A stretch of DNA of 38,261 nt from Candidatus Kaiserbacteria bacterium RIFCSPHIGHO2_12_FULL_53_13. GTDB lineage: Bacteria; Patescibacteriota; Minisyncoccia; Phycocordibacterales; UBA2100. A program made the translations under genes and the position numbers. Within the stretch, counting starts at the first letter, position 1; each line of letters begins with the position of its first letter. The stretch covers positions 16,164 through 54,424 of the forward strand of contig MFLP01000030.1 of the NCBI GenBank assembly GCA_001781555.1, in the 5' to 3' direction. Shown piece after piece: positions 6,164-9,257 of the stretch. Under the pieces are notes generated by a model. That model ran no database searches and was not told the origin of the DNA. It saw only the letters and a list, made by a program, of their open reading frames with translations.

Positions 6164-6754
6164 ATGTTAATTATTGATGTAGAAGCATCGGGGACGGAAG
6201 CGCACAGGCACTCCATCGTGAGCGTGGGCGCGCTCGATTTTGCGAACCCGAGCAATAGATTTTATGAAGAATGCAGAGTTTGGGATGGTGCGCACATTAT
6301 GGACGAAGCACTTGCGGTGAACGGATTCAGCAGGGAACAGATAACCGATGCTAGAAAGCAGAGCGAGGCGGATCTGACACACGCCTTCCTTCACTGGAGT
6401 GATGGATTGGAAGAACGGACTCTTGCAGGACAGAACGTTTCTTTTGATCGCGATTTCTTGAAATATGCGGCACAGCGCGCCGGGCATACCGACTGGCCAT
6501 TCGCATATCGCACGATCGACACGCATACGCTCTGCTACATGCACATGGTAGAGCGGGGAATCCAGCCGCCGGTGAAGCATCGCCGCTCCGCACTCGACCT
6601 AGATGCAGTATTGCACTATTGCGGTATTCCAGAGGAGCCCAGCCCGCACAACGCGCTTACAGGTGCCTTGTCGCATGCGGAGGTAGTCGCACGCCTTCTC
6701 TATGGCCGAAAGCTTTTGCCAGAATTCATGCAATTTGAGATACCCTGGAAATAA
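6164..6754 (+). CDS. DEDD-type 3'-5' exonuclease (DnaQ/RNase T-like)
   Basis: Exo I motif MLIIDVEASG, Exo II GQNVSFDRDFL and Exo III-like HNALTGALSHAEV. The internal ATG at 6164 is preferred over the ORF-track start 6074, which overlaps the previous gene. TACAAT lies 6 nt upstream. Confidence 0.75.
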   Translation: MLIIDVEASGTEAHRHSIVSVGALDFANPSNRFYEECRVWDGAHIMDEALAVNGFSREQITDARKQSEADLTHAFLHWSDGLEERTLAGQNVSFDRDFLKYAAQRAGHTDWPFAYRTIDTHTLCYMHMVERGIQPPVKHRRSALDLDAVLHYCGIPEEPSPHNALTGALSHAEVVARLLYGRKLLPEFMQFEIPWK

Positions 6755-7009
6755 GGGGCAGGGGAGAGTGCAAGAAGAACAGCATTTGTAGATTTATTGA
6801 TGCCTTCCCCTTTGGTTTGGCAGGGAACTGGAAATAAATTTTATTCTGGAATATTGAGTCGTTATAATACTTCCAACTTCGTTTTAATTGTTCCGACACT
6901 TTATTTAAATCAGCAGTCATCAGAGGAAGAGAGAAGTGTCAAATCGGCTAAACGAGATTGTGGCGTAATAATATTAATACAACGTCGCACAATATATCTT
7001 TTACGCGGG

Positions 7010-7026
7010 TAGCTTATGCGACATAT
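7010..7026. repeat. Left copy of a perfect 17-bp inverted repeat (tagcttatgcgacatat)
   Basis: Exact reverse complement of 7726-7742. Lies 38 nt beyond the stop of the 214-aa gene. Confidence 0.95.
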
Positions 7027-7034
7027 CATATTAT

Positions 7035-7052
7035 TTACTTATATTTAAGTAA
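7035..7052 (-). terminator. AT-rich hairpin downstream of the 214-aa gene (TTACTTA-n4-TAAGTAA)
   Basis: 7-bp stem with a 4-nt loop, 12 nt after the stop codon. There is no clear U-tract, so this is a weak terminator call. Confidence 0.3.
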
Positions 7053-7064
7053 TCAGATAATGGC

Positions 7065-7709
7065 TTAAGAACGTAAGACACGTAAGGGCTTGCGGCTTTT
7101 ATAGAACTCCTCAAACGTCTTCCAGCTCATAAGGGTTTGCTTTTGCCCGAGCCCCCTCTTCTTTTTCTGGACTAGCTCATTTAGCTCGCTCTGATTAATA
7201 TCTTCGTTCATCTGAAGAAATATGATTGGATATGGCAGTAGGTCTGACTGCGAGTATTTAGCCAGTTTAAGGTTCAGGCATCCCCCAATATTTTTGAGCG
7301 AACTGGCATAAAACACGTCTACACAAAATCCATCCTTGCCATCATATACAAAGAAATCAGCACGAGTCCTGTGGTCATCTGTGTAGAAGTATTCTCTGTG
7401 CACAAATTCTTTCCCGAATTGTTTGCACAACAGTTCGTATACATTTTTCTCTAGTATGTGGGCGCGTTCATTTATCGTATGCGCACGTTTTGAGCTATGG
7501 GCGCCTGTTCGCAAATCATGTTCACTTCCTATGTTGAGTTGTTTACGAAGCGCGACAAGTCCGCCAAAACGACGCTCGGCAGTTTTAGCTCTGGGTAAAT
7601 AAGGACACTCATCAAATTCTGTTGCTGTCGGGTACCTATGGTTCTCCTTATAAAAACGATCTAATCCATCTCTTATCCGCTCCATGGGCCACGTGAGACC
7701 TTTTGCCAT
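7065..7709 (-). CDS. Hypothetical protein: N-terminal homing-endonuclease-associated repeat (HEAR/HNH_repeat-like) plus restriction-endonuclease-fold-like core
   Basis: Residues ~8-58 (ERIRDGLDRFYKENHRYPTATEFDECPYLPRAKTAERRFGGLVALRKQL) fit the HEAR consensus (...GrxPtxxEfd...Psxxtixr.FGsW..Al). The core EKNVYELL...RADFFVYDGKDGFCVDVFYASSLK resembles a PD-(D/E)xK / Vsr-like layout. Both matches are from memory of the consensus. Confidence 0.5.
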   Translation of the reverse strand: MAKGLTWPMERIRDGLDRFYKENHRYPTATEFDECPYLPRAKTAERRFGGLVALRKQLNIGSEHDLRTGAHSSKRAHTINERAHILEKNVYELLCKQFGKEFVHREYFYTDDHRTRADFFVYDGKDGFCVDVFYASSLKNIGGCLNLKLAKYSQSDLLPYPIIFLQMNEDINQSELNELVQKKKRGLGQKQTLMSWKTFEEFYKSRKPLRVLRS

Positions 7710-7721
7710 CGCTCAAGTATA
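7710..7721 (-). promoter_or_regulatory. -10 box abutting the 214-aa gene start, 4 nt from the right inverted repeat
   Basis: TATACT (7721->7716) - 6 nt (TGAGCG) - ATG (7709). Confidence 0.45.
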
Positions 7722-7725
7722 CCCT

Positions 7726-7742
7726 ATATGTCGCATAAGCTA
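7726..7742. repeat. Right copy of a perfect 17-bp inverted repeat (atatgtcgcataagcta)
   Basis: Exact reverse complement of 7010-7026. Lies 4 nt upstream of the TATACT box of the 214-aa gene. Confidence 0.95.
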
Positions 7743-7837
7743 TTTATGATTCTGTGGATATTCTCTGCTACTACCGTAAGATACATTTTCCTGGCACAAG
7801 CTTGGCTATAAACCCGTGGATGTCTGGCTTCTCTTTT

Positions 7838-8173
7838 TTAATAAAGAGAATTAAACGGGTCAACTTGAAACTTGATGCGACTGACGTTTTGTTCGCTGCC
7901 AGAGACTGTTTTTCCGGCTCCCAAGGATAGACCAACGACACTTACCTTACCTCCCCCTTCGACGTTCTTTCCTGAAATAACTGTAACCGCCACATCGAAA
8001 CTAATGCTGCCATTTTTATTTTTGTCGTCTCCTCGATTACTGTCCATGTGGTATTGCATCTGTCCATTTGTTCTCTCCGGAGTCTTCTCCTGCTTTGCGA
8101 TTGCGATATTGGCATTTTTTACACCTCTTTGTATTCCTACAAGTGTTTCCTCGATAAATTTATCTAGTTGCAT
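7838..8173 (-). CDS. Trypco2-like small protein (conflict-system-associated alpha+beta domain)
   Basis: N-terminal helix LDKFIEETLVGIQRGV. It is followed by ISFDVAVTV...GGGKVSVVGLSLGAGKTVSGSEQNVSRIKFQVDP. This mirrors the trypco2 pattern (...vElel.vavt....g.kvkfwvl.lga......s.thrikl.l.P), recalled from memory. Confidence 0.5.
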   Translation of the reverse strand: MQLDKFIEETLVGIQRGVKNANIAIAKQEKTPERTNGQMQYHMDSNRGDDKNKNGSISFDVAVTVISGKNVEGGGKVSVVGLSLGAGKTVSGSEQNVSRIKFQVDPFNSLY

Positions 8174-8183
8174 ATAGACACTT

Positions 8184-8564
8184 TTAATTAATATTTTCAG
8201 TAAATTTTGCAGCTATTTTTTTACGAAGCGTCTGTATTTTCGGATCATTACTGATTGACGCTGCTGTATCAAGTCTCTTTAAAAATAGCTCAAGTTCTTC
8301 AGGGGAACCCACTCCATATTTTTCAACCCACTTATCAACTTCATTCACAATTTGGTTGGCAACCTCTTTTGGTTTTAAAGATTCACCATCGTGCCATTGA
8401 GGGGATTTGCGGGTTAGAGCAATATCCCTTTCGAACACGTTTTCTCGCCTTGTTGCAGAATCGCCCGCGCTAGATATAGGTTGTAATTGGGCAGCTTTAA
8501 TGAGGCGGCCAATTTGTCTTTTCACACGTTCTTCCGGTCGAAGTCTTTCTAACCCCTTACCCAT
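8184..8564 (-). CDS. Hypothetical 126-aa predicted all-helical protein, first gene of a two-gene operon with the trypco2-like gene
   Basis: Clean ORF in the AT-rich island, 10 nt upstream of the next ORF. TGCTAACAT (extended -10) lies 6 nt upstream of the ATG. I recognise no family. Confidence 0.55.
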   Translation of the reverse strand: MGKGLERLRPEERVKRQIGRLIKAAQLQPISSAGDSATRRENVFERDIALTRKSPQWHDGESLKPKEVANQIVNEVDKWVEKYGVGSPEELELFLKRLDTAASISNDPKIQTLRKKIAAKFTENIN

Positions 8565-8597: not shown

Positions 8598-9257
8598 ATG
8601 GCCTACCGCAACAGATTAAAAGCCGTGCTCTCCCCCGCCGAGCGTAAAGTTTTTACTGAACTGAACACCGCGCAAAAGATACAAGATTATTTGGATTCCA
8701 TTCCAATTAATTTTGAGGTCAAGGGAGAGACTTATATGTCGTCGAGACGCGTCATTCGAAATCAGACGGCGCATTGCTTTGAAGGTGCTTTGTTTGCGGC
8801 GGCGGCGCTCGCGTATCACGGAGCGCGCCCTCTGCTCCTTGATCTGAGAACGATAGACGAGGATCAGGACCATGTCGTGGCATTATTCCGGCAGAATGGC
8901 CTTTGGGGCGCTATCAGCAAGACCAATCATCCCATATTGCGCTACCGCGACCCCGTGTACCGAAGCGTGCGCGAACTCGCGATGTCGTATTTCCACGAAT
9001 ACCTCTTAGATGACGGTAGAAAATCTTTGCGGGCATACTCACGGCCATTCTCCCTAACACGCTACCCGGTGAAAACATGGGTGACGGCGGAGAAGGACCT
9101 GCATTTCCTAGTTGAGGCGCTCGACAGCTCCCACCACTTCCCCATCGTTCCGGGAAAAACGATGCGATTGTTGCGCAAAGCATCGCGCGTTGAAACGAAA
9201 GCGATGAACATCGTCGAGTGGCCGGAGCTGAAGAAATCTAAGAGCCGCCCGAACTAG
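8598..9257 (+). CDS. Transglutaminase-like / papain-fold putative cysteine peptidase
   Basis: Cys in QTAHCFEGALFAAAALAYHGARP and His in QDHVVALFRQNGLWGAISKTN follow the C...H...(D/N) spacing of transglutaminase-like cores. Start ATG 8598 is preferred because TATGAT lies 7 nt upstream. The ORF-track start at 8571 would sit 6 nt from the divergent gene. Confidence 0.5.
   Translation: MAYRNRLKAVLSPAERKVFTELNTAQKIQDYLDSIPINFEVKGETYMSSRRVIRNQTAHCFEGALFAAAALAYHGARPLLLDLRTIDEDQDHVVALFRQNGLWGAISKTNHPILRYRDPVYRSVRELAMSYFHEYLLDDGRKSLRAYSRPFSLTRYPVKTWVTAEKDLHFLVEALDSSHHFPIVPGKTMRLLRKASRVETKAMNIVEWPELKKSKSRPN

Follow-up and report, generated by a model that had tools for sequence, protein, structure and literature searches.

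We present a perfect 17-bp inverted repeat whose two arms are extra copies of one arm of the probable chromosome-dimer resolution site (dif) of a candidate-phyla-radiation bacterium, and which brackets a single gene lying directly beside that site. The gene encodes a 214-aa protein with a homing-endonuclease-associated DNA-binding repeat and a predicted PD-(D/E)xK nuclease fold. The results suggest a horizontally mobile, dif-targeted nuclease cassette located at the replication terminus, whose arms are protein-binding half-sites; the cleavage target and the means of movement are inferred rather than shown.

The window, i.e., the whole stretch of DNA analyzed, comprises 38,261 nucleotides of contig MFLP01000030.1 from Candidatus Kaiserbacteria bacterium RIFCSPHIGHO2_12_FULL_53_13. 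A preliminary description, made from the sequence alone, reported the inverted repeat and the enclosed nuclease-like gene, and proposed a minimal insertion sequence (IS) or homing element or, alternatively, paired operators for autoregulation or the ends of an invertible segment. As an observation, this description is confirmed.

Results

The inverted repeat and the adjacent 28-bp site

The sequence TAGCTTATGCGACATAT is present at 7010-7026 (+) and its exact reverse complement at 7726-7742, matching at 17 of 17 positions. These are the only two matches in the window even when up to 3 mismatches are allowed, compared to 0.09 expected from dinucleotide-preserving shuffles. The described layout is exact on the coding strand: the arm is followed by 4 nt, the TATACT hexamer, 6 nt, the open reading frame (ATG at 7709, TAA at 7065-7067), 12 nt, an AT-rich hairpin, 8 nt and the second arm (Table 1). 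The preliminary description did not note that the arm at 7010-7026 continues without a gap into a conserved 28-bp site, that the arms are copies of an arm of this site, that the core motif TTRTGCGAC occurs there a third time at 6984-6992, that the conserved unit runs on to 6982, or that the whole locus sits at the convergence point of the two replichores.

Table 1. Coordinates of the sequence features at the locus (positions in the window)
Feature	Position	Strand	Description
Arm U	7726..7742	-	Copy of a dif arm (TTATGCGACAT) plus TAGC, inside the core promoter of the gene
Probable -10 hexamer	7716..7721	-	TATACT, 6 nt before the ATG; leaderless or near-leaderless mRNA inferred
214-aa gene	7065..7709	-	N-terminal HNH_repeat DNA-binding module (about residues 9-58) and C-terminal predicted PD-(D/E)xK-fold nuclease domain (about residues 70-205)
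AT-rich hairpin	7035..7052	-	TTACTTA-AATA-TAAGTAA in the 3' untranslated stretch; probably incidental
Arm D1	7010..7026	-	Copy of the dif left arm (ATGTCGCATAA) plus GCTA, fused at fixed spacing to the dif site
Putative dif site	6982..7009	-	Altered left arm CCCGCGTAAAA (6999-7009), centre GATATA (6993-6998), right arm TTGTGCGACGT (6982-6992)
Block shared with L006	6984..7743	-	Transferable unit: U, gene, D1, dif

The 28-bp site as a putative dif

The 28-bp site is hyper-conserved across Patescibacteria, its usual form being ATGTCGYAAAA-GATATA-TTGTGCGACRT. The consensus has an 11-6-11 layout in which the arms match as a dyad at 8 of 11 positions, its G+C content is 36% compared to 51% for the window, and 15-16 of its 28 positions match the E. 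coli dif, an identity reached by only 0.7% of shuffles. The 19-mer AAAAGATATATTGTGCGAC occurs once in the window (one copy of the site at up to 3 mismatches) and once in each of 120 metagenome stretches, including contigs of 0.6-0.9 Mb; in total, more than 120 stretches carry the core, each once.

The site is intergenic, lies between convergent genes, and coincides with a switch in gene orientation. Around gene-bearing loci, upstream genes run 126 with and 17 against the family gene while downstream genes run 58 with and 133 against (Fisher p = 1e-27), and around sites without the gene the counts are 63/16 on the left and 24/83 on the right. In the window, 27 of 29 genes from 7065 to 38247 point toward the site, and GC skew changes from + to -, with the skew maximum at about 7000. 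GC skew and gene orientation are not independent of each other, and no complete genome was examined for the copy number of ATGTCGYAAAAGATATATTGTGCGAC or its position relative to the whole-genome skew. The features listed above are the published criteria for dif (PMC2731167), and on this basis we read the site as dif. The assignment is by criteria and not by partner: no tyrosine recombinase gene was found in the window or next to the site in other loci, where the most frequent neighbors are M23 peptidase, GluRS, a TraG-like ATPase and L9; the rest of the genome was not examined, and binding and recombination by Xer were not assayed. DnaA boxes are enriched around the site, which is not explained by a terminus or dif reading. 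We therefore considered a replication origin, but rejected it because genes converge on the site, including 27 of 29 genes over 31 kb in the window. A literature search found no paper describing a dif site of Patescibacteria.

The encoded protein and its family

The gene belongs to an uncharacterized Patescibacteria family (377 clusters at 50% identity). The HNH_repeat profile PF18780 is found in 26 of 32 family members (best E 4e-5). Pfam, NCBIfam and PHROGs give only HNH_repeat and a weak HNH endonuclease hit, with no DDE, HUH, serine or tyrosine recombinase domain; PADLOC and NCBIfam yield no known defense system or named family; and there is no sequence match to any PDB chain. One condition set in advance against the nuclease assignment was that the protein should model as some other fold. 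The AlphaFold model (pLDDT 81.8) instead has helix 70-98, strands 107-133, helix 138-151 and strand 162-166, in agreement with the alpha-beta-beta-beta-alpha-beta core of the PD-(D/E)xK superfamily, and the top Foldseek matches are nucleases, namely Can2, Bax1, R.BspD6I, BstEII and phage endonucleases (E = 2e-3 to 3e-4, probability up to 1.0). D118 and K148 are invariant and D/E131 is conserved down to 27% identity, but the canonical lysine of (D/E)xK is replaced by F133; the invariant K148 on the next helix may substitute, so the residues neither establish nor exclude the catalytic motif. Purifying selection is strong (dN/dS 0.05 against the copy in L006, a distantly related genome).

In all 40 loci of the window's subfamily where the site could be located, and in 4 of 6 distant members, the gene lies beside dif, and it reads toward the same dif arm in every one of these loci except one distant member (L182). 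Two other distant members (L175 and L177) sit beside an unaltered, symmetric dif with neither U nor D1 and appear to be co-transcribed with host genes. No relative was found in IMG/VR, INPHARED or PLSDB, i.e., there is no indication of phage or plasmid carriage.

Conservation of the arms

Whether homologous genes elsewhere also carry the flanking repeats had been named as a criterion for the element. The flanking motifs are conserved in 41 genomes, although the arms are imperfect in most of them, matching at 9-17 of 17 positions in 33 relatives, and distant members lack them. A motif equivalent to U, TAnCTTGTGCGACATA, lies upstream of 33 homologues, and nothing is conserved further upstream, so U is a lone half-site. 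The spacing from the GTCG of D1 to the CGAC of the right dif arm is exactly 31 nt in all 40 loci measured, whereas the distance from the stop codon to D1 varies from 8 to 204 nt among homologues and the sequence there, including the hairpin, is not conserved. The D1 17-mer is identical in L006 although synonymous sites are saturated (dS 2.1).

The two arms track each other. U matches its own D1 at a mean of 13.1 of 17 positions, against 12.0 for other loci (permutation p = 5e-5), and parallel TGCGAC-to-TACGAC changes occur in both arms in three separate branches while the dif right arm stays TGCGAC. In addition, none of about 40 gene-bearing loci keeps GTCG in the left dif arm, against 84 of 111 sampled sites (p = 2e-19).

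Arm U overlaps the promoter. A TAnnnT hexamer lies 6-7 nt before the ATG in 19 of 33 homologous loci and 6-12 nt before it in 30 of 33, and the CGAC of the arm lies 8 or 14 nt before the -10 hexamer in 18 of the 30 loci with a -10-like hexamer. A generic promoter scan was not above chance, and an antisense promoter reading from D1 has no consistent -10.

Distribution, transfer and decay

The preliminary description had proposed a search for extra copies, empty sites and inversion or excision junctions, and held that a single-copy locus with identical flanks in all relatives and no empty site would speak against a mobile cassette. Empty sites do exist. Only 3 of 108 non-redundant dif loci carry the gene (2 of the first 80 examined), and the closest relatives (L083, L118 and L121) have no gene; the closest relatives without it have a plain dif, and L121 keeps D1 plus dif as a gene-less footprint. 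One further copy (L120) is a pseudogene. There is never more than one copy per locus or window, no copy was found away from dif in the close subfamily, no excised or inverted form appears among about 30 contigs of this population, and no inversion variant was seen in 41 other genomes.

The comparison with L006 indicates horizontal transfer. The protein is 83% identical to that of L006, whereas the flanking L27, M23 and MurG are 51, 35 and 41% identical; by contrast, relatives with L27 at 77-81% have only 61-67% identity in the family protein. A blastn alignment gives 74.7% identity over 763 nt and nothing beyond either end; this block of about 760 bp ends one base beyond the outer end of arm U (7743) and at the outer end of the conserved core of dif (6984). 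The cassette is 42-44% GC in a 51% GC window.

Discussion

The interpretation given in the preliminary description is partly supported. The unit is a discrete single-gene cassette with a homing-endonuclease-associated repeat and a predicted PD-(D/E)xK-type fold, empty sites and horizontal transfer are evident, and the overlap of the upstream arm with the promoter fits the operator alternative; a minimal IS and an invertible segment are not supported.

The sequence comparisons themselves show that the arms are duplicated half-sites (an 11-bp arm plus 4 nt) of the neighboring site, that this site has the layout, palindromy, composition and position expected of dif, that the family combines the DNA-binding repeat with the nuclease fold and lies beside dif with the counts given above, and that the unit U-gene-D1-dif is patchily distributed, has moved between distant lineages, and decays. 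The mechanism is our inference from these data, and we hold it with no more than moderate confidence. In this view, the DNA-binding module recognizes the dif-arm sequence; arm U, sitting between the -35 and -10 positions, acts as an operator through which the protein represses its own leaderless transcript; and arm D1, locked 4 bp from the dif left arm, holds the protein beside the Xer-bound site. In cassette-bearing chromosomes the true left arm has lost the GTCG core (CCCGCG instead), and the resident dif would therefore no longer be a symmetric target for the nuclease but could still serve Xer. The nuclease would act on plain, symmetric dif sites, and the cassette would behave like a free-standing homing endonuclease gene that has chosen the most conserved non-coding sequence of the chromosome as its home. 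Neither binding nor cleavage was assayed, nor was copying into cassette-free alleles, and what binds the arms could be the host Xer recombinase instead of this protein. Homing needs flanking homology or co-residence of two genomes, and transfer between genomes with 35-51% identical flanks cannot use homologous flanks, so the means of insertion is not accounted for. The distant members L175 and L177 also fit a host function better than a self-protecting homing gene.

The strongest alternative, which we nevertheless consider unlikely, is a host terminus factor, i.e., a domesticated or lineage-specific protein such as a Tus- or RTP-like fork trap whose oppositely oriented sites U and D1 flank its own gene, or a nuclease that helps Xer by resolving the Holliday-junction intermediate at dif, with U serving only for autoregulation. 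This is consistent with the location of the gene at the replichore convergence point next to dif, the binding-site-like arm in its own promoter (as with tus/TerB and rtp/TerI), the strong purifying selection, the distant members embedded in host operons beside a plain dif, and the appearance of phage endonuclease I, a junction resolvase, among the fold matches. However, the gene is present in only a few per cent of genomes that share the site and is absent from the closest relatives, one copy is a pseudogene, the cassette shows horizontal transfer and low-GC island character, and the fold matches are nucleases only, with conserved catalytic-type residues, unlike Tus or RTP; fork arrest was not measured.

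A less likely alternative is an Xer-mobilized module, similar to an IMEX or an Acinetobacter dif module, in which the host Xer recombinase binds the arms and inserts and excises the cassette while the nuclease is cargo. Joining the two ends (...GTCGCATAAGCTA|TAGCTTATGCGAC..., junction ATAAGCTATAGCTTAT) gives ATGTCGCATAA-GCTATAGC-TTATGCGACAT, a perfect palindromic 11-8-11 Xer-like site that could be the attachment site of a circular form. The arms are dif-arm copies, the cassette sits at dif without a recombinase of its own, the transfer boundaries lie at the arm and at dif, and the altered left arm could be the element-derived arm of a hybrid site; dif modules flanked by inversely oriented pdif sites and IMEX elements are known precedents. 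On the other hand, U and D1 are lone half-sites, with nothing conserved where their partner arms and 6-bp centres should be; the hybrid site (host left arm, centre, U) that an IMEX would leave was sought upstream of U and is absent; and an integrated IMEX has two full sites in direct orientation rather than inverted half-sites. The drift of U and D1 to TACGAC or AGCGAC while the true dif arm stays TGCGAC suggests a different reader from Xer.

A minimal IS, in which the arms are terminal inverted repeats, the PD-(D/E)xK protein is the transposase and the element targets the flank of dif as IS1202-family "dif site hunters" do, is improbable: although perfect repeats bracket one gene, the orientation and spacing next to one dif arm are fixed as in ISAjo2-type IS, which lie 5 bp from the XerC arm (PMC10132070), and a transfer boundary coincides with an arm, there is no DDE, HUH, serine or tyrosine recombinase domain, no target-site duplication (the flanks ATAAA and CCCGC differ) and no second copy. 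Pairing of the arms as an RNA or single-stranded DNA stem, or their being the ends of an invertible segment, is very improbable in spite of the perfect complementarity in this window and the modest within-locus co-variation, because 77 of 130 non-Watson-Crick positions across 33 loci are transversion mismatches and only 35 are G-U-compatible (mostly reflecting a fixed U-versus-D1 difference at one position), U lies upstream of the -10 and is not in the gene's own transcript, Rfam gives nothing relevant in 6500-8300, and the gene has the same orientation toward dif in every locus and contig of the close subfamily.

Elements that exploit dif are so far known as Xer-dependent phages and islands, dif modules, and DDE-type "dif site hunters", and a nuclease-based cassette built from dif half-sites would add a new strategy. 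The IS1202-family dif site hunters of the ISAjo2 type (PMC10132070) are likewise single-gene elements with terminal inverted repeats, found in one fixed orientation a few bp from one arm of dif or pdif, for which a direct interaction with Xer bound at the site has been proposed; they are, however, 1.5-kb IS encoding a 441-457-aa DDE (TnsB-like) transposase, with 24-26-bp repeats ending TGT/ACA and 5-bp duplications, whereas here the repeats are copies of the dif arm itself. Acinetobacter dif modules and IMEX elements (CTX phage, gonococcal island) are small cassettes without their own recombinase, bounded by Xer-type sequences (inversely oriented in dif modules), located at dif or dif-like sites and spread horizontally, but they are bounded by complete 28-bp XerC-centre-XerD sites, while here each boundary is a lone 11-bp arm plus about 4 nt and only one complete site is present. 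Free-standing homing endonuclease genes, including PD-(D/E)xK homing enzymes such as I-Ssp6803I, share the nuclease with a sequence-reading module, its own promoter, the patchy distribution with empty alleles, a phylogeny at odds with the host, degenerate copies, and an altered target sequence next to the resident copy; here the presumed target is dif rather than a gene or intron site, and the flanking half-site repeats and fixed fusion to dif have no described counterpart. In the xerS-difSL and xerH-difH pairs (PMC2731167), and in tus-TerB and rtp-TerI, a gene for a terminus-acting DNA protein is also encoded right next to its site, and for tus and rtp a site in the promoter gives autoregulation. 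The present protein is neither a tyrosine recombinase nor Tus- or RTP-like in fold, and it is dispensable in most relatives that have the same site.

The most far-reaching possibility, which we regard as doubtful, is a previously undescribed kind of selfish element, a sequence-specific PD-(D/E)xK endonuclease that homes to dif, carries a replacement dif arm that keeps Xer working while protecting the resident site, and uses two decoy half-sites to regulate and position itself; alternatively, the family could be an unrecognized terminus-processing enzyme of candidate-phyla-radiation bacteria, either a junction-resolving partner of Xer or a compact fork trap. If the protein cuts a defined 28-bp palindrome, it would be a natural rare-cutting enzyme. 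The site itself provides a concrete candidate for the dif of Patescibacteria, and thereby a marker for the replication terminus in fragmented metagenome-assembled genomes, and links an uncharacterized, strongly conserved protein family to that site.

The upstream ORFs of 111 and 126 aa (7838-8564) have no homologues next to other family members and lie outside the block shared with L006, so they are not partner genes. A 14-nt match to the dif left half at 8668-8681 lies inside a conserved coding sequence (TAQKIQDYLD) and has no right arm, and is a coincidence.

Confirmation of the inverted repeat and the layout of the cassette

The observation made in the preliminary description, that a perfect 17-bp inverted repeat brackets a single gene, holds. 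The sequence TAGCTTATGCGACATAT and its exact reverse complement are the only two matches in the 38-kb window, even when 3 mismatches are allowed, whereas shuffled sequence gives 0.09 matches. The order and spacing of the parts that had been described are also correct: on the coding (-) strand the first arm is followed by 4 nt, the hexamer TATACT, 6 nt, the ATG, 214 codons and a TAA stop, and then by 12 nt, an AT-rich hairpin, 8 nt and the second arm.

Positions of features in the window and in other loci
Sequence	Feature	Position	Strand	Remark
Window	Arm U	7726-7742		Exact reverse complement of D1
Window	Start codon ATG	7709	-	214-codon gene
Window	Stop codon TAA	7065-7067	-
Window	AT-rich hairpin	7035-7052	-
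Window	Arm D1	7010-7026		TAGCTTATGCGACATAT
Window	45-nt conserved element	7026 down to 6982		D1 and putative dif
Window	Nucleotide similarity to L006	7743 to 6984		74.7% over 763 nt
Window	Low-GC island	about 6760-8560
Window	8/9 DnaA box	7753-7761	-	ATATCCACA
Window	111-aa ORF	7838-8173	-	No family match
Window	126-aa ORF	8184-8564	-	No family match
Window	120-aa ORF next to L27	5755-6117	+	Ends in 'sunset' domain (NF051437)
L095	ATPase of about 900 aa	5855-8557
L180	ATPase of about 900 aa	6011-8581
L182	ATPase of about 900 aa	1286-3994
L179	Distant family member, 269 aa	5001-5810		Labelled 'transposase' by JGI

The encoded protein

A Pfam search of the window's protein gives only a weak match to HNH_repeat (PF18780, 'homing endonuclease associated repeat') at residues 11-50, but the same family is hit by 26 of 32 aligned homologues, with a best E-value of 4e-5. 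Whether the protein would model as a nuclease had been named in advance as a point on which the preliminary reading could fail. An AlphaFold model built on 32 homologues, with a mean pLDDT of 81.8, shows a helical N-terminal module followed by an alpha-beta-beta-beta-alpha-beta core, and the best Foldseek matches are almost exclusively nucleases, namely the Can2 nuclease domain, Bax1, R.BspD6I, BstEII, PspGI and Cas4 in the PDB, and phage 'endonuclease-like' proteins, endonuclease I and Vsr-like proteins in BFVD. The E-values are modest (3e-4 to 1e-2) but the class is consistent. Residues D118 and K148 are invariant and position 131 is D or E, even in members that are only 27-35% identical; however, the textbook lysine two residues after D131 is F133, so K148 on the next helix would have to serve.

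The family is large, with 195 hits in a word-indexed search and 377 clusters at 50% identity. It is confined to Patescibacteria wherever a source names the organism, and it is everywhere labelled hypothetical. Searches of phage, plasmid and viral-contig collections, PADLOC and NCBIfam, and of the PDB by sequence, found nothing related.

Conserved elements flanking the gene

We located the homologue in 41 species-level genomes and compared its flanks. Upstream, a motif TAnCTTGTGCGACATA (U) lies just before a -10-like hexamer, and nothing further upstream is conserved. Downstream, there is a 45-nt element, more conserved than the protein, ATATGTCGCAyAAnnnAcnCGCGyAAAAGATATATTGTGCGACrt, the first part of which (D1) is the inverted copy of U, and the last part of which contains the same core, TTGTGCGAC, in direct orientation. 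The distance between the GTCG of D1 and the CGAC of that last part is exactly 31 nt in all 40 loci measured. Consequently, the left arm of the preliminary description is the outer third of a larger conserved block.

A putative dif site

The 28-bp core of this element is most likely dif, the chromosome-dimer resolution site. A scan of metagenome contigs for AAAAGATATATTGTGCGAC returned at least 120 stretches, each with one copy, including contigs of 0.35-0.91 Mb. The consensus of 111 non-redundant copies is ATGTCG(T/C)AAAA-GATATA-TTGTGCGAC(A/G)T, that is, two 11-bp arms that match as a dyad at 8 of 11 positions and a 6-bp AT centre, with 36% GC. It is identical to E. coli dif at 15-16 of 28 positions, which only 0.7% of shuffles reach.

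Genes converge on the site. Around 20 empty sites (sites without the gene), 63 genes point toward the site and 16 away on one side, and 83 and 24 on the other; around the gene-bearing loci, the counts with and against the direction of the family gene are 126/17 upstream and 58/133 downstream (Fisher p = 1e-27). In the window, 27 of 29 genes between 7065 and 38247 point at the site, including the alpha ribosomal operon, dnaK-dnaJ-grpE, scpAB and ftsW-murG, and cumulative GC skew peaks at about 7000. Three caveats apply: skew and gene orientation are correlated with each other, no complete genome was examined, and no Xer gene is found in the window or among the commonest neighbours of the site. 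Non-coding position, terminus position, palindromy and low GC are the criteria used for dif by Carnoy and Roten (PMC2731167). We found no paper describing dif in this group.

The polarity of the asymmetric dif core relative to the conserved flanks differs between genomes: the MurG-GluRS-M23 block is on one side and L27-L9-Ctp on the other, and the core faces either way (loci L058, L033, L091, L096, L110 and L129 versus L064, L083 and the window). The site, or the segments around it, has therefore been inverted repeatedly. A protein of about 900 aa with DUF8128/TrwB/TraG-type ATPase domains (FtsK/HerA-like) is encoded next to the putative dif in 15 loci, among them L095, L180 and L182, and might be the DNA translocase that acts at the site.

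Relationship of the arms to the putative dif

Against this background, D1 (ATGTCGCATAA+GCTA) is a copy of the dif left arm plus 4 nt (compare the plain left half, ATGTCGCAAAA+GATA), U is the same 15-17-mer inverted, and D1 is fused 4 bp from the functional site. The true left arm of that site is changed to CnCGCGyAAAA (CCCGCGTAAAA in the window); none of about 40 gene-bearing loci keeps the GTCG core there, against 84 of 111 sampled sites (p = 2e-19). Among 108 non-redundant site-bearing loci, the D1-plus-dif tandem occurs only in the three that carry the gene and in L121, one of the window's closest relatives, which has the tandem but no gene and is thus a likely footprint of loss.

Arm duplication at the terminus is recurrent even without the gene. 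Seven of 108 gene-free dif loci (L072, L075, L092, L111, L121, L140 and L145) carry, 4-70 nt upstream of the site, an inverted copy of their own left arm plus 4 nt; one example is TATCTTTTCAGACCC, facing the unusual arm GGGTCTGAAAAGATA in L075. The copy follows the local arm sequence, and L072 and L121 carry a whole inverted dif with an enlarged centre.

Distribution, transfer and decay of the gene

The existence of empty sites among relatives had been proposed beforehand as a test of mobility, and such sites were found. Only 2 of the first 80 site-bearing metagenome loci encode a homologue. Among the genomes closest to the window by flanking proteins, L083, L118 and L121 have a dif and no gene (identities to the window are 70% in MurG for L083, 80-81% in L27 for L118 and L121, and 73% in CysRS for L118), whereas L016-L018 do have the gene.

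The gene also moves. The window's protein is 83% identical to that of L006/L014, whose L27, M23, MurG and CysRS are 51, 35, 41 and 39% identical, while the closer genomes L016-L018 (L27 77-81%) have proteins that are only 61-67% identical. Nucleotide similarity between the window and L006 runs from the outer end of U to the outer end of dif and stops at both. The cassette has 42-44% GC in a 51% GC window and lies within a low-GC island. For the same pair, dN/dS is 0.05 with synonymous sites saturated, yet D1 is identical in both; protein and D1 are both under selection. In L120 the gene has decayed, with an internal deletion that removes the K148 region and a frameshift.

The promoter and covariation of the arms

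A TAnnnT hexamer lies 6-7 nt before the ATG in 19 of 33 loci, which implies a leaderless message. The CGAC of U lies 8 or 14 nt before this hexamer in 18 of the 30 loci that have one, so U sits in the core promoter, and anything bound there would block RNA polymerase. U resembles its own D1 slightly more than the D1 of other genomes (13.1 against 12.0 of 17 positions; permutation p = 5e-5). Both arms changed in parallel to TACGAC in three separate branches of the protein tree while the dif right arm stayed TGCGAC, which argues that the arms are read by something other than the factor that reads dif; the simplest candidate is the cassette's own protein. The 17/17 match in the window is the top of a distribution that runs from 9 to 17, and the mismatches are mostly transversions, so base-pairing of the arms is not what is conserved.

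Distant family members

Of six members at 27-45% identity, four lie within 250 nt of the site. L180 has the full architecture of U, D1 and altered arm. L175 and L177 lie 9 and 50 nt before a plain dif, without arms and with almost no gap to the upstream host gene, and L182 lies 235 nt from a dif in the opposite polarity. L179 and L183 show no site nearby; L179, labelled 'transposase' by JGI, sits beside a reverse transcriptase and a type I restriction HsdR gene, with no clear dif nearby. A seventh member (P0290) showed the same convergent gene arrangement, although its DNA was not examined for the site. Linkage to dif is therefore older and more general than the inverted repeat, and the repeat goes with the autonomous, self-promoted form of the gene.

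Interpretation

The analysis supports well the descriptive conclusion that the arms are half-sites of the putative dif, that the cassette sits at the terminus, and that it has been transferred horizontally, whereas how it works is our inference. The preliminary reading of the unit as a minimal IS or homing element is supported only in part. We favour a homing-endonuclease-like, dif-targeted cassette, in which the protein would read the dif-arm sequence, repress itself through U, be held beside dif by D1, and spare its own chromosome because the resident left arm has lost the core. The main alternatives are a host terminus factor, which fits the operon-embedded distant members, Xer-driven mobilisation, since the two ends joined would make a perfect 11-8-11 Xer-like palindrome, and a true IS.

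The closest described systems are the IS1202-family 'dif site hunters' (PMC10132070), Acinetobacter dif modules and IMEX elements, and free-standing homing endonuclease genes. The cassette lacks a defining feature of the 'dif site hunters', and likewise one of the dif modules and IMEX elements. Every feature of free-standing homing endonuclease genes that we examined is present, but the defining one, cleavage of the cassette-free allele, was not assayed, and we therefore regard the cassette as a departure from these systems rather than as a member of one of them.

Other features of the terminus region

DnaA-box motifs TT[AT]TCCACA are strongly enriched next to the putative dif. Of 73 boxes in 1.06 Mb, 32 of 158 loci have one within 400 nt, in mirror-image orientation on the two sides, where the expectation is 0.27 per 50-nt bin. 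Boxes lie at +34 to +45 nt from the site in L020, L054, L057, L083 and L173, and at -205 to -254 nt in L066, L078, L082, L090, L127, L128 and L144. DnaA boxes at a convergent, terminus-like junction are unexplained. The box in the window lies 10 nt upstream of arm U.

The terminus region looks like a hot spot for acquired DNA. Two ORFs of 111 and 126 aa, with 41-42% GC, sit between the cassette and the conserved 228-aa gene; they occur only in contigs of this population and are replaced by other ORFs in the relative L083. The 120-aa ORF next to L27, which ends in a 'sunset' domain (E = 2e-5, just below cut-off), is conserved near the terminus in many of the loci.
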